Below are positions 22,429 to 51,502 of a DNA stretch of 64,000 nt, piece by piece. A program made the translations under genes and the position numbers. Under the pieces are notes generated by a model, which was given only the letters and a program-made list of their open reading frames with translations, was not told the DNA's origin and searched no databases. This DNA comes from a virus, in IMG/VR virus record IMGVR_UViG_3300035670_013228, positions 64,001 through 128,000 of that record, one strand, 5' to 3'. Positions within the stretch are counted from its first letter, which is position 1. Every line of letters starts with the position of its first letter.

Positions 22429-25400
22429 ATGAGTTGTCGAAGTAATGCTTATCAACTAGCCGGGCCGTTTAATCAAACATTATTTTTAGGATGTAGTGTT
22501 ACTAATATAGATATGAATATGGGTTGGGGAGCAGAAGTTTCGTCTTGTAGAGTAAATTTAATTAAAGATTTATATAGACATAATAATCATCCGGCTATAC
22601 AAAGCTATAAAGCTACTATTTATACTAGATCTAGTTCTACTAATCTTAATAGAGAAAATCCTAATGTTAATGAGACTAGGGATTTACCATTTCACCAAAC
22701 CATACTTCAGAAAGAAAAAGACAAATGGCAACAACTGAATAACGAGAATAATAATTTACCATCACCACTACAAGATACGGGCAAACACTACTGGAAAACA
22801 TACAGATCAAACATACCTAACCAGTATAATATCGCTAATCCTAGTTTAGGATTTTGGACCACAAGAGATCCTGGTTTTTTGGGAGATTATAGTAATAATG
22901 AAGCTGGAATTGATATAGATCTTATAGGATGTCCAGTATTTTTTAGGTTTATGGATATTTGGTTTGGAGGTATGATAAAAAAATGGGGATTTAATAGTGG
23001 AAAATATGATGTAGAAATCAATAGTTTTGCATCTTTGCTTGGTGGATGTCAACTGATTTTACAAAAATATTATGGTAGTATTAGCACCATGATAGGCAAC
23101 ACAAGTTCCGCATTAGGATTAACCGGACAAAACTTGGCCGTACCATATAATGACCTATATTATCCTTGCGGAAATAATCCGGGATGTACAGCTACTTGGC
23201 CACAATATAATGGATTATATAATGGATCAGTTTATCAAGGTAATATACCTAATATTTTTAATGTTTTTGGTTACTTAGAAAATAATATTAACGGTAGCAG
23301 TGGTTTTGTGGAGGGGCGAGGAGTTTCAGCGCGTAGCGTCTACTTTGCTCTAAAAGATATGTTAGAACCGAAAATTAATAGGGTACAGTTTGGAGAAAAT
23401 GTATTTAATCCGTATGGAGCTATAGTAGCTAGAACTCCATTTGATCGCGGAACACAAACTTTTATTAATCCTCATAATACGACATTTAATATGGACGGAG
23501 CATCGGCACTTCTTAGCGAAATGGGTTTATTATATGCTCCTACAGCTGTTGATGGCTTATCCAGATCGTTGCTTGCACTAGACATAAGCGAAGTACCCGC
23601 TCCGCCTCAAGGCGTATATATATCAGAAGATACAATGTCTATAATCTCTTTTATAGAATATTGTTGTACAAATGCTGGAAAAGATTTTATAATAGATTTT
23701 ATTCCTATGGAACTTCCGGACCGATTTAATCCCAGAACAGAATATTACACTGGAACTATAAAAATTCGTACCGTAACCAGAGATGTACAAGCAAAACCCA
23801 ACACCATCAGAAGTTTTATACTCGATAGCACCTTTCAGCAAAATGTTGTTAGTTATAATTTTGGAGAAGAGTATCAAGACGTAAAAACTAGATCAGTACT
23901 CATCGGCGGACCTCAAGAAAGATTACATCAGTTTACCACCAATACTGGCGGACCAATGGGATGGTACAGAATATATGAGCCATTGATAGATAGTTTTGTT
24001 CCCATAACCAGTTTTGCAAACAATTCGACACAACAAAATAGTTTATATAACACATACAAAATGCCTGATCATGCTAATCAAAGAGTAATACCGAATGGGG
24101 CTGAACCATGGAGACAACTTGGAGGAGCCGCTACTGCTCAAGAAAATAATAGTTTTTATACTTTAGAAACTAATGCTTATGGTAATAACATTGTTCAAGG
24201 ATCTTATCTGCCTCTTAAAAAACCCGCATTAAATAGTACATTTATTGGTCCTAGTAACAGTTATCCTATATATTTAGATATTATTTCTCCGTATTTTGGA
24301 AAAAGTAATAATGGTGAATATAGACGAGTTTATCTTGATAGAAAAACCGGTAACTTACAAATAATATTTGATTTTAGAGATATTCAACCATTTTTTCCCA
24401 CACAATACGACATAACTGACGGCAATTGGAGTGCTGCTGGACAAGTTGTTAGAAATCTTTTTCCGGGCATCGTTGTACAACCCGGTGGTCTGGCTGGAGA
24501 TGTAACAGGAGGGGCGGTAACTTCTGGTAAATTTGTTGTAGAAGAAGACGAGATTAGAGCAGCAATGAGCAATCCTGGTGATTGGTATTATCATTTGAAC
24601 GTTATGCTAAATGTTGGCAAACCTACTGCAACATCTAAAATATTATTTAATTACATAAGTAGAACAGTATCAGATTTGTTTGCAAAATCTTATTTTCAAA
24701 ATAGTTTAGATTTAAAAAATAAAGGAAACTACTTGCAATATGTTCAAACTGTGGAAAATTTTTATAGTGCTTTTAGGGAGCGATACATAGGTCTTAACGG
24801 GATAGTGCATGACATGGGATTAAATATGTTTGCCAGCGCTTTTGCTCTAACACATCCCGAACTCAACGATAGACAATTTCAACAAAGTATGGATAGTATT
24901 AATAACTTATTTGAAAATGTTAGACTATTTATTAGGAGCGTCGGCGAAGCACACTACGGAAAACATTTTGCTGTAAGATTACCACAATTAAGTAGATATA
25001 CTAATAATAGTAATGGAGATACTATTTATAACTATAGTATAGTAGCTGATGCCTGGGAAGAACCAGGAAATATGATTGATGATACTATGGATATTAGTAG
25101 TTTAGCGGCACAATCTTTGACATCTGATAACCGTAAAATGCCACCACTATTAGGTTTTGATAATGGTGCAGAATATGACTTTCCTCCAATAATGTTGGGT
25201 ACTCATAGACATTTAACAGACAATAATCTTATGCATAGTAGTTCATTAACTCCATTTGCTTTGTATAATAGAACAATAATAGGAATGAGTTTAAAAAATC
25301 CATTACAAACAATAGGTATTGGTCCGGCACTTGCTAATAGATATTATCATCCTTTAATTCATAATTTACCACAAGATAGTTATATTATGTTACCATATAC

Positions 25401-26427
25401 GGTTTTATACAGTGACATTGTGATACCAGGTGGTAGATTAACTTTTAGTCCGATTGTGCCAGGCACCACAGCGCATAATATGCCTAGAAATGCAAATAGT
25501 CATTTGTATAAAATATATGCTAAAGCTCAAATATTATCTGTTGAAGAAGGTACTGATAATCCACAAATTACTTTTTGTAGAGGTACTCCGCGGGCTGTTT
25601 TGGCATTACCCAGTCCTATGCTGGTACGATCTGGTCCGTACGATAACGGAATAACTACCGGAATAGCAGCTCTGGTTTTGGGTGATGAAGAACCGGATGA
25701 AGTTGATATTATAGCAGCACCAGATCTGAATCAATTTTTTCGGGCTGATTCGGTTTTGTTAAATCAGGGACCTTCGTTATTTCACGACGGAGAATATATC
25801 GGCATAACCGATACGCAGTTATCATCAAACACATTTCCTAGAGCAGCAAAACCTATTTTTGCGGCTATCCCTTTAAGAAATAATTTAGTAACATATGGTC
25901 CATGGGTATCTCACCCGGGACTAATAGCTAATACTATTTTTCCCGGTCAGGGTTCTACACAATTCGGTTTGGTAGCATTGGTTAATAATTTGGTCGGTGG
26001 AGTAGATGTAAAAATTGATCCTAGCTTGGTACCTTGGGAATATGGAGGAATGAATGCTTTAGATGCTGCTGCATTATCCTTGGTTGGTATTAATAATGGA
26101 TATCAACAAGTACTAGAAACAGGAGATATCACACTTGCTGGTATTATGTTAAAAAATTGGACTCTGGGTAGTTATCTAAATGATGTTTTAGGCCCTATTG
26201 TTAGTAGTATAAAAATAACTATAGGAGATAATGGTATAACAACACAGTATAGTTTAAGAACTTTTAGTAGAAAAATTGGTTTTTACAATAAAGAACAAGC
26301 AGATAATATTAAAAATATAAATCAAGCGATGCTATTGCAAAATCGTAGATTTTCTGAATCAATCAAAAATATGCAAACAAGACTTATTCAGTTTGCGTCG
26401 AAGCCTATGGGAACAAGACCGTACTAA
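22429..26427 (+). CDS. Putative baseplate-hub / tail-tip protein
   Basis: 1,332 aa. The N-terminal LFLGCSVTNIDMNMGWG..S.CRVNL and C-terminal G.ITL.G...IVSSIKITIGDNGITTQYSL resemble gpD/gp27-type hub ends; position after the Dit-like paralogs. Confidence 0.45.
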   Translation: MSCRSNAYQLAGPFNQTLFLGCSVTNIDMNMGWGAEVSSCRVNLIKDLYRHNNHPAIQSYKATIYTRSSSTNLNRENPNVNETRDLPFHQTILQKEKDKWQQLNNENNNLPSPLQDTGKHYWKTYRSNIPNQYNIANPSLGFWTTRDPGFLGDYSNNEAGIDIDLIGCPVFFRFMDIWFGGMIKKWGFNSGKYDVEINSFASLLGGCQLILQKYYGSISTMIGNTSSALGLTGQNLAVPYNDLYYPCGNNPGCTATWPQYNGLYNGSVYQGNIPNIFNVFGYLENNINGSSGFVEGRGVSARSVYFALKDMLEPKINRVQFGENVFNPYGAIVARTPFDRGTQTFINPHNTTFNMDGASALLSEMGLLYAPTAVDGLSRSLLALDISEVPAPPQGVYISEDTMSIISFIEYCCTNAGKDFIIDFIPMELPDRFNPRTEYYTGTIKIRTVTRDVQAKPNTIRSFILDSTFQQNVVSYNFGEEYQDVKTRSVLIGGPQERLHQFTTNTGGPMGWYRIYEPLIDSFVPITSFANNSTQQNSLYNTYKMPDHANQRVIPNGAEPWRQLGGAATAQENNSFYTLETNAYGNNIVQGSYLPLKKPALNSTFIGPSNSYPIYLDIISPYFGKSNNGEYRRVYLDRKTGNLQIIFDFRDIQPFFPTQYDITDGNWSAAGQVVRNLFPGIVVQPGGLAGDVTGGAVTSGKFVVEEDEIRAAMSNPGDWYYHLNVMLNVGKPTATSKILFNYISRTVSDLFAKSYFQNSLDLKNKGNYLQYVQTVENFYSAFRERYIGLNGIVHDMGLNMFASAFALTHPELNDRQFQQSMDSINNLFENVRLFIRSVGEAHYGKHFAVRLPQLSRYTNNSNGDTIYNYSIVADAWEEPGNMIDDTMDISSLAAQSLTSDNRKMPPLLGFDNGAEYDFPPIMLGTHRHLTDNNLMHSSSLTPFALYNRTIIGMSLKNPLQTIGIGPALANRYYHPLIHNLPQDSYIMLPYTVLYSDIVIPGGRLTFSPIVPGTTAHNMPRNANSHLYKIYAKAQILSVEEGTDNPQITFCRGTPRAVLALPSPMLVRSGPYDNGITTGIAALVLGDEEPDEVDIIAAPDLNQFFRADSVLLNQGPSLFHDGEYIGITDTQLSSNTFPRAAKPIFAAIPLRNNLVTYGPWVSHPGLIANTIFPGQGSTQFGLVALVNNLVGGVDVKIDPSLVPWEYGGMNALDAAALSLVGINNGYQQVLETGDITLAGIMLKNWTLGSYLNDVLGPIVSSIKITIGDNGITTQYSLRTFSRKIGFYNKEQADNIKNINQAMLLQNRRFSESIKNMQTRLIQFASKPMGTRPY

Positions 26428-28051: not shown

Positions 28052-31000
28052 ATGGGATGCGGAATATATACAAAAAGTTTTATAGATGATATTAATATTA
28101 ATACAGCTTCTATTAATATAGATGCACTTAGATTAATTACATCTTTTCAATTATATAGTGATAATATTTCGGGTTTATGGCAACCTATTGTGATAGAGGA
28201 ATCACAATCATCTGCTATATATTGCGAACCCCTAATACAAGTTAAAAAAGATTTTAACAATGCTCTTAATCCATGTAATTGTAGTAACAATCAGATTAGA
28301 GATTTGACAAATAATTATTATGACATTTATAATGAAACAGATTTTAATTGTAATTATTGCTGCAATCCGTGTACAGGAATTTTGGATAATGATCCGGAAG
28401 ATCCAGAAAATGAGCCACTAACAACCTCTTGTGATGTTCAGTTTCATTCGGATGATTTTTTAGCAAAAGTTCCTGTTCTTAATCAGTCTTATATTTCTGG
28501 TTTTTATGATTGGAAACACCTTAAACAATTTCCAGCATGTAATAATCCTGGTTTAGGAATAGAACAATTTATTAGTTTTAGCGGCTTTGCTATAGATTGG
28601 AAGCTAAAAGAGACAATATCCGAAATTCCATATGATTCTACAACATCCTATCACATCAATGAGTATACACACAATAAGTCGTATGAAAAATCTGAATTAT
28701 TAAGTAGTACATGTGGTAACTTTATATTATTGTCTTTAGATCCTGAATATAATAATTATAGAGTACAATACTCTGGTATGTTTGGTGCTCTAGGAACATC
28801 CGCTATTATACCCACAGTCGAAAGTTTTACAAAACCATATGGTTTTTCTGAAAATAATTACAAAAATATTTTCTTAAATAGACAAAAAAGAGCTTCTCAT
28901 TGGAAATGGCAATATACTAGTGGTATTATGGGTTGGTACAGATATTTTGATATAGGCAGAGTAAATGATCAAAGGCCGATTCCCGGAGTAGATTTTTATA
29001 TTAGTCCCGGCGATGTTTTTTTTGCTAAGAATGAAGGGCCAGAACCAGCTAATACAAATTTTGATTTCGATGAACCGCCCGGCCCATCCCATCCTAGCGA
29101 GGGAGAATTACCAAAGTGTCCATCAGGACTTAAAGTAGTTGACGGTACAACATTTTTAGGAATTATTCCACCGAGTTCTAATTTTATTTATATATCTCAA
29201 AATTTATATGAAAGATTTTATAATCTATATTCTACATATACTGAGATAGGTTTAAATCATAATAAAGCCTTCAACTTATCCGCATTAATGTGTACATCTC
29301 CACTATACGATGGTATAACAACAAATTTATTAGATAAAGAAGCAAGAAATTTATATTCTGAATTTAATGATTTTGAACAAATAGATCTATTAAATAAAAA
29401 TATGTTAAGAGGCACAAAATATGATTCTGCTAATAATTTAAATTATATTTCTAATAGAGAAGAATTGGTAAAAACTTTATATGCTAAATATGGAGGATAC
29501 GAATGGATTCCTCCTAGATCAACCGTAATAAAAAATTTACCTATTGATAATAGAAGTAATTCTGTATATATAGATTTAGATTTTGATATGGTAATGGATA
29601 TAGATAAAGTTAAATTTAGAAATATTAACTCTAAACCGTATCGTGTATGCGAATCGTCTCCTATGGATGACGAGAGAATTAGTAAAAAGTTTTACTATGA
29701 TCAACATCTAGAATTTGGAAATTTAAACGTAAAAACAAGTGTTGATACCAATTTAAGATTTAGTAATCCATGTGACCCAGAAAATTCTAGTTATTCAATT
29801 TATGGGAACATAGTATATAATGATGTGGTTTTAAAAAGTAAGCCAATATTTAGTGGAGTAACTAGTTTTACTAACAAATATACTAATAATACATTTAACA
29901 GATCATATAAGGCGATAGCTTTTAATCCACATTTAGACTTATTGGCAACTCATCCTAATGGAGGAATATATTTTAATGCTGGCTCTTTTGGCGAAAATGA
30001 AACAGTAGTATTCAATACAAATATTACATCAGCTAGATCGAATGGAATTTCTATTACTTTTACTACCAAAGATGTGGGTATAAAATTATATAAAGTATAT
30101 GCTGCAAAATTACAGTCGGATACACCAGGAACAGAATCTTGTTTAAGATTTCCGGCAGACGAATCTAAATGTAAATGTTATGGATTAAATATTAGTCATT
30201 ATAATAATCATCCCATAAGTTGTGATACATCTCGTATTAGATTAAGTTCTTCTCCATTTTTTGTACCAGGATTATCTACTAAATATAGTCCAAGACTTAA
30301 AAGATATGGTGGATATTCTATTGAAGAAGTTATAAGATTATTTGGTATCGGTGCTTTGTATGCTGATGGTACTCCACAAGAAAATTCACAGTTTTTGCCA
30401 ATTATAGATAAAAAATTAGATCCAGAATATCCTTATGAGTGTGAACAATCGGCCACAATAAAACTTACTAATTACTCTACTACAAATTATTATACTACGC
30501 TGAAAAATTTTAGCACAAGATATAGTGACATCTATATTTCTATTTATGAACCATCAGACTTATTAGGACAACAATGGATATATGTACAAACCGATGGTGA
30601 TCAAGATGTGTTTGTGGAGAATACATCTTGGAAAAGATTTTTAAATAAGGTCACGGCCAATAATGTTACAGTTTATGATCAGCAAGAAAAAATCTTATTT
30701 CAAAAAGGCTCTAATATAACAGATCCTTTACTTATTAGTATTACCAATCCTTTTATTAATGCTCTATTAGGAAATTCTAATGAAAGATTGTCTATTCCCA
30801 CAGTGATAACTGATTCTATAACAAACCAAGTTTTAGCTTTTTCAGATCCTTGTGATCCTTTCAGAGGATATATTCCTCCAGAAACAACTATTAGAACAGG
30901 AAGAAACAGAGGAGATGAGATATCAGAAACATATATCACTATTAAACAAAAGCCCAGAAAACAATTTTTAGCATATAGAGTGTACAATATACCGGCCAGT

Positions 31001-34000
31001 CCTGATGGACCTAAACTTTACGAAAGAGATCAGAATATAGTTGGAATTGGTATGAAAGGCGCATATCATCCTAATTTTGGTATAACTTACGAAAGTAACC
31101 CATCGTTTGCTGGTCCAGTTATAGACGAAGACGGAAGAATACAATACGACACTAATCTTAATGGTGGTTTACAAGGAGATGGAGAAAAAACATATATATT
31201 TGATTTATATAACGATACAGCAACTATATTGGAACAAATTAGTAATTTCGATATTCATAGAAAACCTAGATTATTACTTATTCGAGGATTATCGGGCGTC
31301 GGACCGAACACCGGCAAGAGGTACTATAATATGGAACCCTTTTATAGTAATAGGGGTGGATATAGATTAAATAATATTGATTATATAGGATCTCCTAAGT
31401 TTTTTCTTTACGGGGATCCGTCGATCACACACCAACCTGATCCTTACATTATACAAGAACGAAGTGGTGATGCTTTAACAAGTTATTTGAACTTTATTAA
31501 TGATCTAAATAGACAAGCCAATGCTCCCATACTAGTGCCAGCAAGACCAAAAACAAATCTGTCTTTAGACTATATTTTACAGACTCAACCAGGTTTGGAA
31601 CAATGCGAAAATTCCGACTTACCGGTTGGTGGTGTTGATGGATTTCCTATAAATATTGCTAATTTATGGGGACAAAATATTAAAAATTGGCCAGACAAGA
31701 ATAGATTTTGGAATCCTATTTTTACTTCTGATCCTAGAGTAGTTAGATTTTATGGGTCTAGACCATACTTTAGGATTCCAGAAAAACGAACAGTAGAAGA
31801 CCTTTCTGATACTATCGATTCGTTAGATGACTTTATGTCGCAAACAGACATTTTGCCAGAATTAGTATCTAATACTATTTTATTATTCAAAAGTGGTTAT
31901 TATTTTTATGCTGGACCCACACGAACAGTTGCTACTAGCTATATTTTTGTTGGTAGAGATATCAGCATATTAACTAATTATAGTAATTTAAATATAGATT
32001 ATAAAAATTTTTCTTCTACAGGTTATGTTTATAACACAGAAACAGAATGCGATACTGCTGTAGAGTTATATAGAGTATCATCTTTATCTGGTCCGTTTTT
32101 AATGCCAACCGACGATAATGGTAATAGACTGCTCAGAGTTGTAGGTTCTAATGTTATAGTCGGTAAAAAAATTGTTGTACAAATCACCAACAAAGAAGGA
32201 CAACCAATTTTAGGAGGATCAGGATCAGAAGATAATACATATATTAAAATTTATACAGAATTTAGATTTAGAGACAAGATATTAGATACTGATTTTGATT
32301 TGGTGTGGCCAACCGAACCGAATAGATCATCCGTAGTAGTTTACGACGGTAGAATGATATCAACAGATAAAGATATTTTATTGTCTAATAAAAAATATAT
32401 GACAAAATGGGGAGATTTAATAAAATATGATAATGAGCTATTTAATAATCCTCATTTGTTTTCTTACGCACAAATACCTACGAGCATATATAATAATCTA
32501 TTTTTAAAACAAATTGTTAATGATAATTTATCTAGTGGTATTTTTAAATTAGATATTAATAGAGACAACACTAATGAATTAGATAGAATAGAGTGTTTAG
32601 GAAACATATCTTTACCGTTAGACTTACGATATTATACATCAGAAAACAAACCATACTATTGTATATATCAAAAATATGATTTGGATCATACCAAACCATG
32701 GAATATAGGACTAGACCAGTATCAAAATTATATTCCTATGATGGAAGTTAATTTTTCAGAAAAAATACCCGATGCTATGATTAGCGGTACGATACTATCT
32801 TCTGCGTTATATAGAAAAAACACAGTATTAGATTTTGCACCATTTTATCATATACCAGCTTTGGGCACAGAAGATGATTTTCTATTTAATGCTATTAATA
32901 ATGAAGAAGAAAGATTAAGAAGATCAAAAAGAATAAGTGAAATAGAAAAAATTAAAAGAGAACAAATATCTGATAATGCATATAGTCTTCGTAATGATTA
33001 TCGCCCCCCACAACATAATGTTTTTTTTATTAAGATACCGAATATTTTTAAAAGTACTATTGGTTTTTCTAATCCCAGAGGAGATTGGATAGAAACTTTG
33101 AAAGTTCAAACGCCAAGATATGTTTTAGCCAAAACTATATTAGAAGATAATCAAGTATCGCGAGATGATGTTAGACAAATATTTAGACCTATTAATCTTA
33201 ATATTATAGATAATCAAGCATTAATTAATAATAGCATGAATACTGATGCTTTTATTTTCGGTTCGGTAGAACGAGACACTCCTTTTATTTCTAGAACGAT
33301 ATATGCCGATATAGACAAACCAATGGATAATACTGTTGGCTGTGGATCAGAAAAATGCGAAATAACAACTGCTGGCGATATTAATTTAAGAGCTAACTAT
33401 ACTACATTTTTAAGTAGATATGCTACATATGAACAGTTACTACGCGGTACAAATTTTGAGCTCACATATGATGCTGGAACAGTTAATCTTGTTGGTTTGC
33501 GTCGTAATATGTCTAAAAAAATAGTTAGAACAATGTTGGATCCAGATAATCCTATTTTTTATGATAATACTTGTTTAACTACTACTCCAAAACCTAAAAT
33601 GCCATTTTATAGATTGCTTAATGATATAGACGCACAAGACTATTTGAATAACCAATATGCAGATAATGGAAATAGTATATCTCCAGAATTAGACATTTTA
33701 GATGATAATGCTAATGAAATGCTTTTTAGATTACTAAATGGTGAAAATCAAAAAATCAACAGAAAACAATTATTTAAGAAAAATTATATACTAACACAAA
33801 ATGAATTAATAAATTTTGTAGAACCAGAAATTACAGCTAAAGAAATTTATAATCAAATTTTATATAACTATGATAGTAGAATTAATCCAGGAGCTAATAT
33901 TAGTGGTTCATTAAATATTAATGGTACAAAAAATATTGGTGATTTTATTAGTATAGATATTTATAATGTAAATATACAGCTAAGTATTGTACAAGTTGAC

Positions 34001-36244
34001 GGAAACAATGTTGTATTAGTGGGTAATATTGGTAATAATAATGTTAATGAGCTTTTATATAGAAGAACAGAAACGCAAAATAGTTTGATAGTGGTTGAAT
34101 ATTCAACTTCGACATCTTCTGCGGCAGCAGCGGCGATATCGGCGGGATATCGTCCGGGAACAGGATCTGACGGAATTTTGGTACCACCCGACACAGAACC
34201 AAATATTATTCCTGCTGATCCGGAACCAACCGACGATAGCGAAAGTATAACACTAATAGCTACTCGTACTACTACTGATACTAGTATTGGTGTTTACGTT
34301 GATATAAGCATAAAAGAGGGATCTTGTGATCCGTGGAGAGAACCATTCGTAAGACCACCAGATTGTCCGGAACAAGGGGGATCCGAGATTGATCCAGTCA
34401 CTAATCTTCCTATTGGTGGACCCGTAGAAGAACCACCAGGATGTAAAGATCCTTGTCCATATGCTGGTGGAGCCGGGCTCGTAGATGGTCCAACAATGAT
34501 GACAGATATCCGAAGATGGAGAGGTTCAATAGAGTATGCTCCAACAACATGTGGGAAATCTAATTGGTACGATCCTTTTAAATATGGTTATTGTAGACAC
34601 ATAGATACTGAGGCTATTAAAAATAATCCAGAATTTAAACCAAAATGTGCAAATTGTAATTCATATTTTACTAATTATATTGATAATTACGATGGAATAG
34701 AAGGAGGTCCAGAATTTGATTATGAATTTCAAAAATGTTCTACCACATTTAGACTCAAAGGACACTTGTATAGACTTAAATTCACACCACAAAATGAAAG
34801 ACCATCATTTAGATGTAATCCGGAACTTTATAGTCCTTTCCTCCCAGCAAAAAATAATGCATGTACTGCAATTTTAGGAAATGTAGTAGGATGTTGGGCG
34901 GGTTGTACTCCTGGGCCAAAAAGTCCGAACTTTTGGCATCTGTCTAGAGTAGCAGATTGCTACAGCGATCCTTATGCACCATATTTTCTTTGTATTCCAA
35001 CTTTCGGAGATCCTTATCAATGTACTAAAGTATCAACAAGTAGCACAACCACAACAACTAGAAAAGTTTTCAAAAAAACCAAACAGATTGATTATGGTCC
35101 ATATACTCCACCAAGCTGTGCCGTTCCTTTTGTAAATATCTCATATACCAAAAATAAAGTAACTGTAAGCATACCATCTATCGGCAAAACTTACTGTTTA
35201 GCGATTAATTCTAATAGTAATTGTCCAATTATTAATATTGATATGCCCAAAAAATATACTGTAACAGAAAATATTACTAGTGAGTGTGTGAGCAATTGTG
35301 GAGATCCTGTTTCTATAGAAATTCAAGAAGAAAATAACGATTTTGATTTTGCTTATCAGGATTATACTGTGGTATGCGAACTAGGTCGTATATCTTATGG
35401 CGATTTACAGGGAGATGCTGTTGTAACAAATGGTTACAGGTGGCCCGATGGTTCATCAAGCGTACCACCGGGCGAATTTCCTCCGTGCGGAGATAGGGCC
35501 GGATGGATAATCTCGCTGTGCGGAGGAGGGCCGTTATGGTATAATTGTGGACCATTCTCCGAAAGAAATCTAACTTATGGAGGATGGACAGCTAGCGATA
35601 TGGCTGCTGGATGGAGACAAAAAATGGAAAATATATATAATAATGCTCAATTACCATGCAAGGTTAGTCCCGCAATACCAACAGAAGATATAATAGAAGG
35701 CATTATTCCTGGTTCATGCTCTTTAAATTTTCAAGATATTAGTCTTGAACAACCAAAATATAAAGATGTTAGTTATGATGAATTTGCTTCATCTTCATGG
35801 ACTGTAACTACATCTATTGCCTATATTACATATACCTATAGAAAAGCTAAAACTATACAAGATCATTTAATATCTGGAACTAATAATGGAAATATTAATA
35901 ATAGTATTGTAATAGAATATGAGAAAAATTCTTATATACCTTACGTGAGAACAGTAAACGGTATTGGCTCTTGTAAAGAGTTAGGTTTCCCACCGAGATT
36001 TCTAGCAGACACAGATTCGATTACAGGCGCATTATATAATACCTTTAAATTAACTTCACCGATTTATAGAAGAACATCTTGCGATACTGCTCCTACTTGT
36101 TATTATGATACTAAACTAGACGATAAACAAAGTCCTTGCAATTATGGAGATTGGATATGTTGGTCAACCGTCGGTTCTGCTAATAGAGCCTCGTTTTTAA
36201 ATAGAATATTCAAAGATCCTACAGGAAATAATAGGTGGGTATAA
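28052..36244 (+). CDS. Giant Cys-rich hypothetical virion protein (2,730 aa)
   Basis: Uninterrupted ORF with Cys clusters at the N-terminus and about 32 Cys in the last ~640 aa; an acidic/Pro linker at ~34100-34450. Confidence 0.7.
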   Translation: MGCGIYTKSFIDDININTASINIDALRLITSFQLYSDNISGLWQPIVIEESQSSAIYCEPLIQVKKDFNNALNPCNCSNNQIRDLTNNYYDIYNETDFNCNYCCNPCTGILDNDPEDPENEPLTTSCDVQFHSDDFLAKVPVLNQSYISGFYDWKHLKQFPACNNPGLGIEQFISFSGFAIDWKLKETISEIPYDSTTSYHINEYTHNKSYEKSELLSSTCGNFILLSLDPEYNNYRVQYSGMFGALGTSAIIPTVESFTKPYGFSENNYKNIFLNRQKRASHWKWQYTSGIMGWYRYFDIGRVNDQRPIPGVDFYISPGDVFFAKNEGPEPANTNFDFDEPPGPSHPSEGELPKCPSGLKVVDGTTFLGIIPPSSNFIYISQNLYERFYNLYSTYTEIGLNHNKAFNLSALMCTSPLYDGITTNLLDKEARNLYSEFNDFEQIDLLNKNMLRGTKYDSANNLNYISNREELVKTLYAKYGGYEWIPPRSTVIKNLPIDNRSNSVYIDLDFDMVMDIDKVKFRNINSKPYRVCESSPMDDERISKKFYYDQHLEFGNLNVKTSVDTNLRFSNPCDPENSSYSIYGNIVYNDVVLKSKPIFSGVTSFTNKYTNNTFNRSYKAIAFNPHLDLLATHPNGGIYFNAGSFGENETVVFNTNITSARSNGISITFTTKDVGIKLYKVYAAKLQSDTPGTESCLRFPADESKCKCYGLNISHYNNHPISCDTSRIRLSSSPFFVPGLSTKYSPRLKRYGGYSIEEVIRLFGIGALYADGTPQENSQFLPIIDKKLDPEYPYECEQSATIKLTNYSTTNYYTTLKNFSTRYSDIYISIYEPSDLLGQQWIYVQTDGDQDVFVENTSWKRFLNKVTANNVTVYDQQEKILFQKGSNITDPLLISITNPFINALLGNSNERLSIPTVITDSITNQVLAFSDPCDPFRGYIPPETTIRTGRNRGDEISETYITIKQKPRKQFLAYRVYNIPASPDGPKLYERDQNIVGIGMKGAYHPNFGITYESNPSFAGPVIDEDGRIQYDTNLNGGLQGDGEKTYIFDLYNDTATILEQISNFDIHRKPRLLLIRGLSGVGPNTGKRYYNMEPFYSNRGGYRLNNIDYIGSPKFFLYGDPSITHQPDPYIIQERSGDALTSYLNFINDLNRQANAPILVPARPKTNLSLDYILQTQPGLEQCENSDLPVGGVDGFPINIANLWGQNIKNWPDKNRFWNPIFTSDPRVVRFYGSRPYFRIPEKRTVEDLSDTIDSLDDFMSQTDILPELVSNTILLFKSGYYFYAGPTRTVATSYIFVGRDISILTNYSNLNIDYKNFSSTGYVYNTETECDTAVELYRVSSLSGPFLMPTDDNGNRLLRVVGSNVIVGKKIVVQITNKEGQPILGGSGSEDNTYIKIYTEFRFRDKILDTDFDLVWPTEPNRSSVVVYDGRMISTDKDILLSNKKYMTKWGDLIKYDNELFNNPHLFSYAQIPTSIYNNLFLKQIVNDNLSSGIFKLDINRDNTNELDRIECLGNISLPLDLRYYTSENKPYYCIYQKYDLDHTKPWNIGLDQYQNYIPMMEVNFSEKIPDAMISGTILSSALYRKNTVLDFAPFYHIPALGTEDDFLFNAINNEEERLRRSKRISEIEKIKREQISDNAYSLRNDYRPPQHNVFFIKIPNIFKSTIGFSNPRGDWIETLKVQTPRYVLAKTILEDNQVSRDDVRQIFRPINLNIIDNQALINNSMNTDAFIFGSVERDTPFISRTIYADIDKPMDNTVGCGSEKCEITTAGDINLRANYTTFLSRYATYEQLLRGTNFELTYDAGTVNLVGLRRNMSKKIVRTMLDPDNPIFYDNTCLTTTPKPKMPFYRLLNDIDAQDYLNNQYADNGNSISPELDILDDNANEMLFRLLNGENQKINRKQLFKKNYILTQNELINFVEPEITAKEIYNQILYNYDSRINPGANISGSLNINGTKNIGDFISIDIYNVNIQLSIVQVDGNNVVLVGNIGNNNVNELLYRRTETQNSLIVVEYSTSTSSAAAAAISAGYRPGTGSDGILVPPDTEPNIIPADPEPTDDSESITLIATRTTTDTSIGVYVDISIKEGSCDPWREPFVRPPDCPEQGGSEIDPVTNLPIGGPVEEPPGCKDPCPYAGGAGLVDGPTMMTDIRRWRGSIEYAPTTCGKSNWYDPFKYGYCRHIDTEAIKNNPEFKPKCANCNSYFTNYIDNYDGIEGGPEFDYEFQKCSTTFRLKGHLYRLKFTPQNERPSFRCNPELYSPFLPAKNNACTAILGNVVGCWAGCTPGPKSPNFWHLSRVADCYSDPYAPYFLCIPTFGDPYQCTKVSTSSTTTTTRKVFKKTKQIDYGPYTPPSCAVPFVNISYTKNKVTVSIPSIGKTYCLAINSNSNCPIINIDMPKKYTVTENITSECVSNCGDPVSIEIQEENNDFDFAYQDYTVVCELGRISYGDLQGDAVVTNGYRWPDGSSSVPPGEFPPCGDRAGWIISLCGGGPLWYNCGPFSERNLTYGGWTASDMAAGWRQKMENIYNNAQLPCKVSPAIPTEDIIEGIIPGSCSLNFQDISLEQPKYKDVSYDEFASSSWTVTTSIAYITYTYRKAKTIQDHLISGTNNGNINNSIVIEYEKNSYIPYVRTVNGIGSCKELGFPPRFLADTDSITGALYNTFKLTSPIYRRTSCDTAPTCYYDTKLDDKQSPCNYGDWICWSTVGSANRASFLNRIFKDPTGNNRWV

Positions 36245-46002: not shown

Positions 46003-46031
46003 ATTATACCAAAAAGACACACAGATGTCAA
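46003..46031 (-). promoter_or_regulatory. Consensus sigma70-type promoter for ssb
   Basis: TTGACA (46031-46026, overlapping the dnaE-C stop), a 17-nt spacer, then TATAAT (46008-46003). Confidence 0.8.
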
Positions 46032-47644
46032 GTTTTCGGTATAAAACACTTTTCTACTATAAATGAATCATCACCCTGTCCTTTTTTACCCTTAATAATA
46101 ATTATGTTATTGTCAAATAGAATATGTTTATATGTTCTATATGCTTCGGGGAAAAAGATAACACTATCTATAGATCCATAGCCGTCCGTTAAGCATACAA
46201 AAGCCATCTCTGCACCAGGAGATTTTCCAGACTTTGTTTTTGTTATATTTAAGCTAGAAATTTCTCCGCACACAATAAGATTATCTTTTAGTAAAATAGT
46301 TTTAAAATCTTTGCAGTTACAATTAGTCATGCTAACATCATACATATCCACTTTTGAACAAGTAATAGGACATCCTAAAACCTCATCTTCGGAATCAGCA
46401 ATCCATTCAGGATTATCATCCAGAGAATATGGTGGTTTTTTAATTGTGTCTAACATACTATTAATAGTAGTTTTTCTTTTTTGTGTTAATTTATGTTCAT
46501 GACATAGTTTATATATATACTCATATATAGTACTACATGAAGATATTTGATTTATTAGATATAATATTTCTTTGTTGGTAAGCTCGCTAACTAAACTAAA
46601 TTCAAATAACATACTTGTTCTAGTTTTTTTTGTAAAGTCAAGAGATCCCGATTTTATTAGAGCTTTAGCTGCTGTAGAATTAATATTAAGTAATATACGA
46701 AATAGAATATCGTACCAACTAGATTGGTATAGATCAATCTTATTATCTTCTACTATAGTAGATAATTTTTTATATACAGAAGATCCAAAACCTTTAATAT
46801 CTGTTAAACCAAAATATATATTTTTATCTTTTAGTATAAATAGTTCATTCATAAGACGTAAGTCTGGAACACTAACCAATATATCCATTTCTGTAGCATT
46901 TTGAACTAAAGATTTGATTTCTGCTTTAGGATCTATTTTATCTTTAGCGAATCTAAGATACGAAGCAAAGAAAACTTTAGGAAAATGAGCCTTACAATAT
47001 GCGGATAAATAGGCATTAATCGCATACGATACTGCATGACTTTTATTAAAAGAATATCTTTGGCTTTTTTCTATCCATCCAAAAATTTCCTCAGCTTCTG
47101 ATACCGAAACTATTTTTTTGTGTTTGGCCCCATCTATAAATTTATTTTTTAGTTTGGACATTTCTTCTGGTTTTTTCTTACCAATAGCTTTTCTAAGATT
47201 ATCTGCTTCTTGTAGGTCAAATCCGGCTATTTCTTTAGCTATTTCCATAGCCTGTTCCTGATAAATCATTTCACCATAGGTCTTTTTAAGTATGGATTCT
47301 AGTGCTGGATGATAATAATCTACAGATTCTTTGCCATTCTTTTTATCTATATAATGACTACTAACAGTTTTACCGTCTCTTACCGCTTCTAAGCATCCTG
47401 GTCTTAGAATGCTGATTAATGCGGATAGCTGTTCTATGTTCTGTGGTTTTAACTTTTTCGCCATTGATCGCCCTAAACGAGACTCTAATTGAAAACAACC
47501 TTTTGTGTTACCATCAGAAATAAGATTCCATGTTTTAGGACAATCTAGATTTATTTGATTGTTTATCGGATTAAAAGCAATATTTGTTTTATTTTGATCC
47601 AATAAATCAAATGAACAACCACATGAGTATGCAAATTTCTTCAT
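46028..47644 (-). CDS. dnaE: DNA polymerase III alpha, C-terminal half (fingers, HhH, OB)
   Basis: TKGCFQLES, LISILRPG, IYQEQAM, LRKAIGKK, YSFNKSHA and GLTDIKGFG motifs, and the OB-fold MAFVCLTD. Confidence 0.95.
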   Translation of the reverse strand: MKKFAYSCGCSFDLLDQNKTNIAFNPINNQINLDCPKTWNLISDGNTKGCFQLESRLGRSMAKKLKPQNIEQLSALISILRPGCLEAVRDGKTVSSHYIDKKNGKESVDYYHPALESILKKTYGEMIYQEQAMEIAKEIAGFDLQEADNLRKAIGKKKPEEMSKLKNKFIDGAKHKKIVSVSEAEEIFGWIEKSQRYSFNKSHAVSYAINAYLSAYCKAHFPKVFFASYLRFAKDKIDPKAEIKSLVQNATEMDILVSVPDLRLMNELFILKDKNIYFGLTDIKGFGSSVYKKLSTIVEDNKIDLYQSSWYDILFRILLNINSTAAKALIKSGSLDFTKKTRTSMLFEFSLVSELTNKEILYLINQISSCSTIYEYIYKLCHEHKLTQKRKTTINSMLDTIKKPPYSLDDNPEWIADSEDEVLGCPITCSKVDMYDVSMTNCNCKDFKTILLKDNLIVCGEISSLNITKTKSGKSPGAEMAFVCLTDGYGSIDSVIFFPEAYRTYKHILFDNNIIIIKGKKGQGDDSFIVEKCFIPKT

Positions 47645-48327
47645 CTAAAAGAATCCTTAAATTTAATGTTCTTAGAGAGTCTTCTGTGTAGTTTCATAAA
47701 TCTAATCATTATATTCGCTGTGTCTATGACATCTTTGGAAGCATCGTGAGCACCTTCCTTTGATATTCCGAAATATTCTCTTAGTGAATCTAAAGTATAA
47801 CTCTTAATATCACTATTCTGTTCAAACCAATAAAATATAAGATTAATTACATCTATAACATCTCTAGGATAAAAAAGATCTGTTTTTCCTTCTTTATTTA
47901 TGTTTTTATATTTGCTACTAAGTCTATTGATTATGGGTAAATCAAATCTATATATATTATATCCAGCAGCTATTGGTGCTGTAAACTGACTTTTTTTAGA
48001 CGATCTTGTATGGTATTTATCGAGATAGTCTGTAAACATTTTCCAAGAATGTTCTTGAGCAGGATTTGCTTTCCATTTACTTATAATATCTTCTTTTGAG
48101 CAACCATAAACCTTGGCATGAAAATCTACAACATCTGTGGTATATACGTAGTCGGAATCTTTTTCAAGAGTTTCTGGCTTAAAATAAATATTAAATTCTG
48201 AATTGGGTATAATTTCTAGATTAATGGGATCGATTATCACAGCAGCCAATTGGACAGGACTGCAAGACTCTGCATCTACGCCGTCCGTTTCAAAATCAAA
48301 AACACAAATTTTGTTATAATTGATCAT
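47641..48327 (-). CDS. dnaQ: DEDDh 3'-5' exonuclease (DnaQ/epsilon-like)
   Basis: ExoI VFDFETDG, ExoII GYNIYRFD and ExoIII AHDASKD motifs. Confidence 0.85.
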   Translation of the reverse strand: MINYNKICVFDFETDGVDAESCSPVQLAAVIIDPINLEIIPNSEFNIYFKPETLEKDSDYVYTTDVVDFHAKVYGCSKEDIISKWKANPAQEHSWKMFTDYLDKYHTRSSKKSQFTAPIAAGYNIYRFDLPIINRLSSKYKNINKEGKTDLFYPRDVIDVINLIFYWFEQNSDIKSYTLDSLREYFGISKEGAHDASKDVIDTANIMIRFMKLHRRLSKNIKFKDSFR

Positions 48328-48509
48328 TCTGTTACAACTTCTACCTCTGTAATAGGAATTATGAAATGTTTTTTTGTTGAATCTGTGGCAAGAACAGCAT
48401 TGAAGAGTTTACAGCAAGATATTCTTTCGTCTTGAATTTTAATAAATTCTTTATTATCTGTTTTAAACTTGGTGCCAACCGAAATATCTGCAAATTTTTG
48501 TAGTGACAT
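48324..48509 (-). CDS. Small beta-rich hypothetical protein (SH3/KOW-like)
   Basis: 61 aa, F.DISVGTKF...F.K pattern; tightly coupled between dnaE-N and the exonuclease, with SD AAGGAG upstream. Confidence 0.6.
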   Translation of the reverse strand: MSLQKFADISVGTKFKTDNKEFIKIQDERISCCKLFNAVLATDSTKKHFIIPITEVEVVTE

Positions 48510-48511
48510 AA

Positions 48512-50403
48512 TTATTCTCCTTCTTTTAATAGATCTTGAATCGTCATAATTTTATCTAGCATTGCTACACCGAGAATATCAAATTTTATTATTCCTAATG
48601 ATTCTAGATCTTGCATCTCCATTCCAGCTATCATTTGTTCATTTTTAGAATCATAAATCATAGGACAAATATCTTTGAGTGGACTAGCGCTTATGGCTAT
48701 TCCGGCCGCATGTTTAGATTGATTCGATTTTGTTCCTTCTAGTCTAATAGCCTGCTCGAATCTTTTTGCAAGTGGACCATTTAAAGTATTATTAGAATCT
48801 ATATAACAATAATCTTTTAAGCCGTCTGCATTATTTTCTAAAGCCCATCTTATAATAGATGCTTCTCCTGTTTCTTCTTTCATTTCTTGAAGCTCATCGG
48901 CAATTTTTGCTTCATCCGGGATATTCTTAGTAATTTTATTCATTTCGTCAAAAGATATATTGCCATATACTCTAAGAACATCTTTAAGAGCACCCCTACC
49001 TTTGATAGTGTTAAAAGTTATCATTTGAGAAACCTTATCTTCTCCATACTTATTTTTAATATATTGTATGATATTTTCTCTTTTATTAATTGGTACATCC
49101 ACATCTATATCTGGCATTGATATTCTATCTTTAGTATTTCTTCCAGAATTATAAAATCTATCAAACATTAGATTATATTTAATAGGATCAATATTTGTAA
49201 TGCCGATCAAATAAGACACCAGACAACCAGCAGCACTGCCTCTACCCGGTCCTGGTAACCAATTATTAGTTTTTACATAATTCACAATATCTTGTACAAG
49301 TAGAAAATAACTAGAAAGATTGGCACCTTGCAAAACATCTAGTTCGTATTTGATACGATCAACATAAATACCCTGATCATTTTCTGGTACTGTTTTTGCT
49401 ATTTTTTGTTTCCAGCCCTTTCTACATAATTCCCTAAGATATTCAGCATCTGTATACCCTGCCGGACAACTAAAAGGAGGTAAATTAGGCTTATCTAATA
49501 TATTATATTCTTCACACATACTATCTATTAAGTTTGTATTTTCTATTTCCTCCTCAGTATGTATACTATGCATTTCTTCTTGAGATAATATATGAAAATT
49601 GTCTGATGTAAAAAAAGCAGAGAGAGGAATATCTTCGTGATTATGAATTTTTTTACTAATTTCTCCGAAAGTTGTTTTTAGATTATTACATAGTAAAATT
49701 CTTTGATCTACCGCGTCTGTTTTTCTACAGTAATGGGCATCTGGTGTGCAGACAACCTTGGTATCGGTTATTACGCCTAGTTCTCTAATGCAGTCTGTTA
49801 GGGTCTTTTGTATGGGTAAGTTTTCTTGATCCATTAGTTGGGATTCTAGAAAAAAATTATCTTTTCCAAAGATGTCCTTAAAAGAGTTAATATGTTCGAT
49901 TCCAATATTTTTCCAATCTGATACAATCTTGTCGGCAATAACAAGCTTGTCGGCAATAAAAGATCCTAAATGTCCACAGATACAGACTAGATCACCTCTA
50001 ACGTATTCTTTTAATAAGGACAAATCTAATCTTGGTTTATGATAGTAAAAATTGGGTCTGTTAGATAAAGAAACAATTTCTATTAAATTCTTCCATCCTC
50101 TGTAATTTTTGGCCAAAACCAGTAAATGGCTTAGTTTTTTATTTTCCTTAGTTTGAACAGAAGCATCGTCGGAAGCGATATATAGCTCACAGCCAATAAT
50201 AGGCTTGATGCTATTCTTCTTCATTTCTGTATAAAACTTAATAGCTCCAGAAATATTTCCATGATCTGTTAGTGCGCATGATTTTGCATTAATTTCCAAA
50301 CATCTATCGGCGATTTGATGAGGTTGAGAAAGTCCATCCAATAGTGAGTAATGAGTCACTAGGAATGGACATGAAGAGGAACATACGTTCTTCTCATATC
50401 CAT
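48512..50403 (-). CDS. dnaE: DNA polymerase III alpha, N-terminal half (PHP + palm); first 14 codons out of frame because of an 8-nt insert
   Basis: LTDHGN, GCELY, TPDAHY, GRGSAAG, MPDIDVD and KFDILG motifs. The track ORF starts at GTG50359, but SD AAAGGA + ATG50403 encodes MDMRRTYVPLHVHS, then TAGTGACT, then HYSLLDG. Confidence 0.9.
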
Positions 50404-50455
50404 TATATTTTTATCCTTTCCTTTTCTAAAGATCTGTCAACTATTTATAACAAAA

Positions 50456-51502
50456 CTATTCGGCACTACCCGGAGCTTTGTACTGTCCTACATTATACCC
50501 CGGAGCTTGGTATTCGTCAACCACCACATCTATGCCCTTAACCGATATGTCGTGATGAACTTGTTCGCACATTGTCATATGTTCACCAAGTGGTGTAATC
50601 TGATTTTCTCTATATTCTATTATGGGAAGATGATTGGTATTATTAAATGTATTTTTGCCAAAATGACATAATTTTGTACATTTCCAGCTTTTGTTTAGTT
50701 CTGGATTAGTAGTATTTTTTATGGTTTCAAATTTATTCTTTAACATATTTTCAATTTTAGATATATGAGACTTGTCAAAACAGATCGAAAACATACCACC
50801 ATCATTAATAAAATATATAGACACTATAACATATTTAGCATCTGGGTATAATTTATGTACAGCATAGTAGTAGAGCATTAGTTGTGGATCTTCATGTAGT
50901 TTTGCCAAGGTTTTTTCCTGACCGGTTGCCCAATCTAATCTCTTGCCGGTTTTATAGTCTATAATTTCTAGTGTATCGTCATTGACGCGCGCTATTAGAT
51001 CCATAGTTCCTTTAATAGCTAAGTACCCATTAATTTGTCCCGTTTTAGTTTGATAATTATATTTAGCCCATTCTTTTTTTATTTCTATATCAAAATGCTG
51101 TTCTGGTTGTACAATATTTTTATTCCTAGGATCAAATATGCCATCAGAATAATTAAGGGCTTTAAAAATCCATTTTTTGCATTCATTATAGTCGGCTGCC
51201 GACCACTCATGATGATTAAATTTTGATATGTAATAATCGTATACTTTTTCTATAATTAGATTAATATCATAATTATTAATATCTATTATACCCAATATTT
51301 CTGTATCATTATAGTACTGTTGATTATTTTGATCACACAATTTTATATGTGCAAGAATTTCGAAAACTTTGTGACATATAGTACCTTTATCTGCTTTTTT
51401 GTTGGATTTAGATTTTATCCCAAGAACATATTCGAACATATATTGCATAGGACACATGGAGTGTGTTCCGTAACTGGAACTTCTTAGATATGTGATAATC
51501 AT
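50456..51502 (-). CDS. PD-(D/E)XK exonuclease, RecB/AddB/Cas4-like, probable Fe-S Cys set
   Basis: CP.QY, GTICH..FE, GTMDL...IIDYKTG and QLMLY motifs; C-terminal CTKLC...C. Confidence 0.85.
   Translation of the reverse strand: MIITYLRSSSYGTHSMCPMQYMFEYVLGIKSKSNKKADKGTICHKVFEILAHIKLCDQNNQQYYNDTEILGIIDINNYDINLIIEKVYDYYISKFNHHEWSAADYNECKKWIFKALNYSDGIFDPRNKNIVQPEQHFDIEIKKEWAKYNYQTKTGQINGYLAIKGTMDLIARVNDDTLEIIDYKTGKRLDWATGQEKTLAKLHEDPQLMLYYYAVHKLYPDAKYVIVSIYFINDGGMFSICFDKSHISKIENMLKNKFETIKNTTNPELNKSWKCTKLCHFGKNTFNNTNHLPIIEYRENQITPLGEHMTMCEQVHHDISVKGIDVVVDEYQAPGYNVGQYKAPGSAE

Follow-up and report, generated by a model that had tools for sequence, protein, structure and literature searches.

Very few natural systems are known in which ribosomes efficiently pass over part of an mRNA in a programmed manner: gene 60 of phage T4 and its homologues, the mitochondrial byps of a yeast, and a candidate in Streptomyces phage phiHau3. 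The gene 60 bypass, together with the MobA homing-endonuclease element, was reportedly the subject of work by Huang in 1988 and Bonocora in 2011. Its logic (Manning and Atkins, bioRxiv 10.1101/2022.08.31.505936) includes: i) a stop codon right after the take-off codon; ii) a co-varying take-off stem-loop that contains this stop; iii) an upstream stem-loop that can re-form behind the ribosome; and iv) a landing triplet beside the resume codon. In the phiHau3 terminase gene, gaps of 10 nucleotides (nt) follow a UUA codon (Smith 2013; Antonov et al. 2023, PMC10732093), and a junction peptide found in a heterologous E. coli system speaks for their bypass (PMC10732093). Synthetic stop-hops and short tRNA hops in E. 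coli, as summarized in a review (Weiss, Dunn, Atkins and Gesteland 1987; PMC5009743), and the byps of Magnusiomyces capitatus mitochondria, in the account given by a later paper (Lang 2014; Nosek 2015; cited in PMC10732093), are the other close comparisons. In the 'fractured genes' of environmental phages, dnaE and other genes are broken by split inteins and free-standing homing endonucleases (Dassa et al. 2009, PMC2677866). The locus described here is the 5' end of dnaE in an uncultured ~178-kb phage. The DNA analyzed, called the window, comprises bases 64001-128000 (64,000 nt) of the 177,880-bp IMG/VR virus record IMGVR_UViG_3300035670_013228, rated 100% complete. Its dnaE has an 8-nt coding gap, for which the best explanation, with a probability of roughly 0.7 on the evidence of the sequences, is programmed translational bypass by a ribosome hop, a miniature counterpart of T4 gene 60.

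The gene lies on the minus strand and starts with a mini-open reading frame (mini-ORF) of 14 codons with its own Shine-Dalgarno (SD) sequence; the gap and the body of the DnaE N part follow (Table 1). Downstream of the gap, from position 50353, the sequence CAT TAC TCA CTA TTG GAT GGA encodes HYSLLDG. Frame 0 continues after the take-off codon with TAG TGA and then nonsense, and a GTG at 50359 within the gap opens the listed 615-aa ORF that ends at 48512. Deletion of exactly 8 nt gives ...PLHVHSHYSLLDG, the same motif as in uninterrupted relatives. The Pfam PHP match begins at profile position 6 in the downstream ORF versus position 2 in an uninterrupted relative, whose N-terminus aligns gap-free to Taq Pol III alpha (2hpi; ...LHQHTQFSLLDG...). 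Thus, the PHP domain truly begins with the 14 codons, and exactly 8 nt separate them from the remainder. The downstream ORF has all of the PHP motifs LTDHGN, GCE and DAH, and its Pfam PHP and DNA_pol3_alpha matches exceed the cut-offs, which places it in DnaE (PHP plus palm). An earlier note on this DNA, made from the letters alone, had placed the SD, ATG50403, the 14-codon peptide and the 8-nt insert correctly to the base. Its description of the insert, opening with tandem stops and an overlapping GTG, is borne out. So is its statement that removal of the 8 nt restores the canonical PHP motif, for which the uninterrupted relatives and the 2hpi alignment now speak, and the other PHP metal motifs are present, as it had supposed.

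The 8 nt are real DNA. A contig of run X1, possibly the source sample, has a depth of 82 and is identical across 50100-50600 including the 8 nt, and a contig from an independent freshwater study (X5) spans 50294-50443 with 3 substitutions and no insertions or deletions. The earlier note had proposed raw-read mapping as a check; in both contigs the insert is retained. A search for sequencing runs with this stretch turned up no RNA run. An assembly error is excluded; so is a recent private lesion, which the note had listed with it as a model, by these contigs together with the many gap-bearing relatives.

These relatives came from two protein-based scans and a DNA pattern search. A first scan of IMG/VR gave 80 relatives (66-93% identity), most of which read M-K-K-Y-I-P-L-H-[VC]-H-S-[MH]-Y-S-L-L-D-G in one frame, and a second, started from another member, gave 80 loci; the gap was present in 13/80 and 22/80, respectively. 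The first DNA pattern, with fixed spacing, matched one locus only and was superseded by a variable-gap pattern, which brought the IMG/VR collection to 49 distinct cassette sequences (~40 natural variants) with the gap at the identical spot. The insert, same or compensated, that the earlier note wished to see in related phage dnaE genes is therefore there, at 6-12 nt. Between the phages that carry it, DnaE differs by up to ~35% of its protein sequence. A megablast search of GenBank phages gave no close relatives, and tblastn found only relatives of 36% identity or less; full-text literature searches found no published description of a dnaE bypass.

The gap is variable in length and strict at its borders. 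It measures 6 nt in one cassette, 8 nt in three, 9 nt in nine, 10 nt in 18, 11 nt in 17 and 12 nt in one, so that the three frame classes hold 11, 18 and 20 of the 49 cassettes. Sister sequences joined with a branch support of 100 fall in different frames (L109, 11 nt; L082, 12 nt). Because every frame class occurs, even between sisters, the gap is not decoded as codons, and therefore no single frameshift or read-through serves all members. It is always preceded by a Ser codon TCY (49/49). Its first codon is a stop, TAA in 26 cassettes and TAG in 23, UAG being that of the window, and its last triplet is NCN with an invariant middle C: TCN (Ser) in 30, ACT in 10 and GCT or GCC in nine. Decoding would resume at CAY in 36 and at ATG in 13.

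Both flanks are conserved as protein. In the mini-ORF the residues Y, P, L, H, V, H and S (Y-x-P-L-H-V-H-S) are invariant in the 49 cassettes, the Leu being encoded by five synonymous codons (CTT, CTG, CTA, TTA, TTG), and the downstream [YF]-S-L-L-D-G is nearly invariant. L001, a relative of 93% identity, differs from the window only synonymously in the mini-ORF and at the resume codon. The spacing of the motif does not vary among the 44 distinct gap-less relatives, and 2hpi shares it. These patterns indicate that both flanks of the gap are translated and are under protein-level selection as one motif. M-[DG]-[MV] at the start of the mini-ORF is also conserved, and since the same codons form the 5' arm of the first stem-loop described below, constraint on RNA and on nascent peptide are inseparable there.

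Two hairpins flank the take-off codon. Stem-loop 1 (SL1), which reaches from the start codon to the H-V-H codons and abuts the take-off codon, has 9 bp and a loop of 18 or 21 nt. All nine pairs form in 46/49 cassettes, and 99.3% of cells are paired versus 24-47% when the partner is slid by 1-3 columns as a control. In 19 cells both sides are altered (AUG/CAU versus GUG/CAC), one case pairing a GUG start with CAC. Stem-loop 2 (SL2) is formed by the gap, from the stop codon onward, with codons of the resumed reading frame. The earlier note had seen it as an 8-bp stem, which is an overstatement: there are six contiguous pairs (TAGTGA/TCACTA), a C-C mismatch and one further pair. The MAFFT alignment A1 was unsuited to scoring SL2, because length variation and two pairing registers left the 5' arm misaligned; the helix was assessed instead by a register-free script and on a gapless alignment of the 11-nt class. 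The helix has 5-8 bp in 34/36 distinct gap/downstream pairings, and 3 and 4 bp in L147 (6-nt gap) and L106. The arms change together: TAGTGA/TCACTA in the window, and TAACGA/TCGTTA, TAGAGA/TCTCTA, TAGCGA/TCGCTA and AAGUGRRU/AYUCACUU in others. The mean helix is 6.9 bp versus 5.6 bp with permuted partners, the observed mean being reached in 0/5000 permutations. In the 11-nt class SL2 is 98.4% paired, with a GC/AU exchange at one pair.

RNAalifold on A1 returned solely a long-range helix, GUCCAUUC with GGAUGGAC, the latter running from the end of one Leu codon through Asp and Gly into the following Leu codon. All eight pairs form in 47/49 cassettes, and the helix is mutually exclusive with SL1. 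The minimum-energy fold of the window sequence (-29.2 kcal/mol, z-score -3.1, equaled by 0/200 shuffles) places SL1 beside SL2, extended by a UCC/GGA pairing, with the take-off codon at their junction. Codon choice at the helix positions distinguishes the cassettes from the gap-less loci: Val is GTC in 49/49 versus 1/44, the second Ser is TCN in 49/49 versus 14/44, and Gly is GGA in 45/49 versus 15/44, the gap-less relatives using varied codons. The same fold also pairs the SD-like GGAAAG (50415-50420) with CUUUCU (50326-50331), ~85 nt downstream in the DnaE coding sequence on the minus strand. This pairing could mask the ribosome-binding site in the model; the bases of CUUUCU are unconserved in relatives.

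The gap is scattered over the phage tree. On a DnaE tree of 85 sequences its presence or absence requires at least 13 state changes, at least eight of them on well-supported branches, and the approximately unbiased (AU) test rejects a single gap-bearing clade (log-likelihood difference 714, p 0.011). Over the gene body the window groups with the gap-less L002 and L009. Over the cassette region, from -105 to +30, it is most like the distant gap-bearing L063, with an identity of 0.75-0.83 versus 0.54-0.71 in the flanks. Gap-less genes mostly overlap the stop of the upstream gene by 4 nt; gap-bearing genes mostly have their own spacer of 11-138 nt with AAGGAG in the same place as the SD of the window. 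The mini-ORF start overlaps an upstream ORF in nine gap-bearing loci. An ORF of ~240 aa overlapping the mini-ORF start is present in 8/51 distinct gap-bearing loci versus 0/47 gap-less ones. It has an N-terminal helix-turn-helix domain and a C-terminal HNH/EndoVII-like domain (PHROG 3322, 1e-20 to 1e-23; PHROG 374; PHROG 1035), and its phage homologues are annotated as HNH endonucleases. The cassette is taken here as spacer, SD, mini-ORF and gap together, and these comparisons lead us to propose that it is part of, or descends from, a mobile element that carries the HNH-type endonuclease gene. We infer that the gap may protect against the nuclease. In L139 the ORF is represented by a truncated 106-aa copy (4544-4864), which hints at decay of the nuclease gene with retention of the gap. 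No homing endonuclease gene lies between the PD-(D/E)XK nuclease gene and the cassette of the window, and because the window is without an endonuclease gene, the mobile-cassette part rests on the relatives. As a cassette without a nuclease, the window would resemble the 'hit and run' cases of gene 60. BLASTP found no likeness between the cassette nuclease and T4 gp60.1, which makes an origin independent of the T4 system likely.

Under programmed bypass the ribosome would initiate at AUG 50403 and stall after translating 14 codons, when UCC is occupied by peptidyl-tRNA(Ser) and the stop UAG has entered the A site. In place of termination, it would advance 8 nt while retaining the peptidyl-tRNA, which would re-pair with ACU (matched at 2/3 positions), and decoding would restart at CAU. 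The product would be a single DnaE N-part chain starting ...YVPLHVHS-HYSLLDG..., with TYVPLHVHSHYSLLDGLSQPHQIADR as the expected tryptic junction peptide. SL1, made of the start-codon region and the H-V-H codons, may re-form behind the advancing ribosome; SL2, in which the gap from the stop codon pairs with the Y-S-L codons, would hold the stop, the two resembling the 5' and take-off stem-loops of T4 gene 60. The hop itself and these roles of the hairpins we infer from the comparison of sequences. Features of gene 60-type bypass found at the locus are the motif restored by removal of the gap, the stop after the take-off codon, the co-varying take-off stem-loop that includes this stop, and an upstream stem-loop, SL1, whose role is presumed. 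Among the five models of the earlier note the 8-nt hop is clearly the best by comparison with relatives. Its term 'translational switch' implies regulation, which goes beyond the evidence here. The start-to-take-off hairpin, the long-range helix, the family of variants, the link to an HNH cassette and the ACU/UCC mismatch go beyond what that note had noticed.

Several points weigh against the bypass. Landing would occur on ACU, which does not encode Ser; take-off and landing therefore do not employ codons of the same tRNA in the window or in about 20/49 cassettes. The nascent chain at take-off, after just 14 codons, would be very short, and such chains readily drop off. SL2 has the landing and resume codons in its loop, which makes it hard to see how this hairpin would help a hop of 8 nt. 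A gap of 8 nt (6-12 nt in the family) is too short to place an internal SD, as in gene 60, 5-7 nt ahead of the landing site. The helix of GUCCAUUC and GGAUGGAC is invariant, showing no co-variation, and so stays a candidate. A homologue of the HNH-type nuclease was not found in the window or in its whole genome. Finally, the DNA-pattern search itself fixed some of the bases later counted as conserved; it added little bias, since all 22/22 gap-bearing loci of the second protein scan match the pattern.

The gap could also separate two translation products, the ribosome terminating at UAG and re-initiating at GTG 50359 or nearby, with the 14-residue peptide complementing the PHP domain in trans or being dispensable. 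Re-initiation by 70S ribosomes near a stop codon is established in bacteria. The window has the in-frame GTG in its gap, six of 32 variants resume at ATG and another 6/32 have a start codon inside the gap. In 17/32 variants, however, no in-frame ATG, GTG or TTG occurs between the preceding in-frame stop and the Y codon, and in a further 3/32 the sole in-frame start lies upstream of the gap. Because these 20/32 variants lack an in-frame start in the gap or at the resume codon, re-initiation is not the general mechanism, and the GTG of the window is a by-product of the stem sequence; the stop-start model with a trans-acting peptide in the earlier note is disfavored on the same count. There is, moreover, no SD for a second start, the flanking residues are conserved as one motif that is unbroken in all gap-less relatives and in solved Pol III alpha structures, and the landing triplet with its conserved middle C would have no role. 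Re-initiation is thus unlikely. A quite unlikely alternative is a -1 (or +2) frameshift at UCC-UAG that inserts L-V-T in the PHP motif, the relatives using +1 or read-through. A stop in the A site with a hairpin downstream is a classic context for frameshifting (reviewed in PMC5009743), and the -1 frame is open across the gap of the window. Yet there is no slippery heptamer, and CAU UCC UAG bars re-pairing in the -1 frame. With gaps of 6-12 nt in all three frames, close relatives would require -1, +1 and read-through in turn, which disfavors the -1 frameshift that the earlier note had offered as a model. The implied inserts of 2-4 residues would vary within a motif of fixed spacing, and the gap co-varies as RNA, not as codons.

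Removal of the 8 nt at the RNA level, by a micro-intron, by cleavage and ligation, or by a polymerase that skips the 5' arm of the hairpin, would explain the free gap length, and co-varying hairpins suit structure-specific processing. It is nonetheless improbable: the junctions are asymmetric (stem base for one, loop for the other), and neither the obligatory stop after Ser nor NCN before the resume codon would be needed. Neither bacteria nor phages are known to excise 6-12 nt from an mRNA. It is very improbable that the gene is dead or decaying, that the gap is an assembly artefact, or that a nuclease cassette left it as a scar which is tolerated despite loss of the PHP N-terminus. Homing-endonuclease traffic does leave scars, and these dnaE genes have been struck by other mobile elements. 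Against this, the gap recurs in independent samples and in the 49 cassettes at the DnaE divergence given above, and the mini-ORF has only synonymous differences from L001. Furthermore, dnaE is the sole polymerase family detected in the complete record, where PolA and PolB were not found. Stop-codon read-through or a reassigned code was considered as well and rejected, the frame shifting by 8 nt and frame 0 giving nonsense after its two stops; no suppressor tRNA is present in the 178-kb record, whose single tRNA gene is Leu-CAA (G000:C1:175989-176071).

Compared with T4 gene 60, the dnaE locus likewise has a non-coding gap in an essential DNA-metabolism gene at a fixed position of a conserved protein, a stop directly after the take-off codon with both in a co-varying stem-loop, and a second stem-loop upstream. 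The scattered distribution on the phage tree is also shared, and some members have an adjacent HNH-type endonuclease gene that others have probably lost. The differences are: i) the gap is 6-12 nt, whereas T4 has 50 nt and the Aeromonas clade 20 nt; ii) the host gene is dnaE versus a topoisomerase gene; iii) the take-off codon is Ser UCY versus Gly or Asp; iv) take-off comes after 13-14 codons versus 46; v) the upstream hairpin contains the start codon; vi) only positions 2 and 3 of the landing triplet match in about 20/49 cassettes, the window included; and vii) the gap cannot accommodate an internal SD 5-7 nt ahead of the landing site.

The phiHau3 terminase genes are alike in having short frame-breaking inserts (7-10 nt) in a conserved phage enzyme, with local hairpins that bring the landing codon close, and the same argument applies that a frameshift would disrupt conserved junctions. 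The trigger there is a rare 'hungry' UUA codon tied to the host bldA tRNA, whereas in dnaE it would be a true stop, and inserts occur in 3/100 terminase genes versus ~40 natural dnaE variants with an endonuclease link. In synthetic stop-hops the peptidyl-tRNA crosses a stop and lands on a matching codon a few nt on, and UCU UAA UCU in the relative L077/L147 has exactly this form; the synthetic hops are low-level, engineered and without dedicated hairpins, whereas the dnaE device would be natural, conserved, structured and in an essential gene. The byps of Magnusiomyces, as far as the citing account describes them, are also natural gaps in coding sequences that translation bypasses, many in number and mobile-element-like with hairpins, but they are inserts of 27-55 nt in many genes of yeast mitochondria, whereas the bacterial viruses here have one such site, in a single gene. 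Fractured genes affect similar environmental phage replication genes, invaded by selfish endonuclease cassettes, and L134 has a fracture and the gap in the same dnaE. Their break is repaired by protein trans-splicing, whereas the dnaE gap has no Hint domain; repair of the gap must therefore act at or before translation.

Taken across the family, and with slightly less assurance than for the window itself, the data suggest that a widespread clade of uncultured aquatic phages (~100-240 kb) reads its sole replicative polymerase gene through a minimal bypass of 6-12 nt, 13-14 codons after initiation, probably driven by two hairpins and spread by an HNH cassette, as a second, independently evolved counterpart of gene 60. 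If so, it would be a second phage bypass system, in another essential gene, with a 6-12-nt gap and a 14-residue nascent chain. The dozens of variants, which differ naturally in stem strength, in the length of the gap and in how well the landing codon matches, would serve as a ready mutational series, and ~40 of them would define the smallest requirements for a hop. They would also test which elements of gene 60 are required, since matched codons, an internal SD and a nascent peptide are reduced or absent here. The pairing of a homing endonuclease with a bypass gap would then be a recurrent evolutionary solution. Gene callers truncate such dnaE genes or call them pseudogenes, so that the annotation of many environmental phage genomes is affected.

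Table 1. Features of the dnaE region in window coordinates
Feature	Position	Strand	Remark
Shine-Dalgarno-like GAAAGGA (core AAAGGA 50419-50414)	50414..50420	-	10 nt 5' of mini-ORF start, within 52-nt spacer
Mini-ORF, 14 codons MDMRRTYVPLHVHS, start ATG 50403-50401	50362..50403	-	First strand of PHP domain and HxH metal ligands
Take-off codon UCC (Ser14)	50362..50364	-	TCY in 49/49 cassettes; minimum-energy fold pairs UCC with GGA 50339-50337
Coding gap, 8 nt, DNA TAGTGACT, RNA UAGUGACU	50354..50361	-	Stop codon first
Presumed landing triplet ACU	50354..50356	-	Last triplet of gap
Resume codon CAU (His)	50351..50353	-	H/M position of uninterrupted relatives
DnaE N-part body (PHP and palm), from resume codon	48512..50353	-	Pfam PHP 6e-36, DNA_pol3_alpha 1e-73
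SL1 5' arm AUGGAUAUG, including start codon	50395..50403	-	9 pairs
SL1 3' arm CAUGUCCAU, H-V-H codons, abuts take-off codon	50365..50373	-	9 pairs
SL2 5' arm UAGUGA, gap from stop codon onward	50356..50361	-	Co-variation with 3' arm
SL2 3' arm UCACUA, Ser-Leu codons of HYSLLDG	50342..50347	-	Co-variation with gap
Alternative long-range helix, GUCCAUUC with GGAUGGAC	50370-50363 with 50339-50332	-	RNAalifold consensus
PD-(D/E)XK nuclease core gene, directly upstream	50456..51502	-	Pfam PDDEXK_1 3e-18
DnaQ-like exonuclease gene between DnaE halves	47641..48327	-	Pfam RNase_T 5e-10
DnaE C part: fingers, helix-hairpin-helix (HhH) and OB domains	46028..47644	-	Pfam DNA_pol3_finger 7e-49

A homologue of the PD-(D/E)XK gene lies upstream in 64/72 gap-bearing versus 64/66 gap-less loci. 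The 52-nt spacer between this gene and the mini-ORF of the window holds a T4-type late-promoter motif, TATAAATA, at 50442-50449 on the minus strand. DnaE is split without an intein at 46028-50403 (minus strand) into an N part (48512-50359) and a C part (46028-47644). A 61-aa ORF (48324-48509, minus strand) and the DnaQ-like gene separate the halves, and the end point of the N part is common to all relatives. The N part is broken again near residue 374 in L134 (9866-12851) and in L089, L100, L118, L132, L137 and L156. At this second break there are a split intein (Hint/Intein_splicing domains) and a free-standing endonuclease-like ORF, the 'fractured gene' layout of Dassa et al. 2009. Elsewhere in the window, giant ORFs lie on the plus strand at 3-14549 (4848 aa), 14564-19117 (1517 aa), 22429-26427 (1332 aa) and 28052-36244 (2730 aa).

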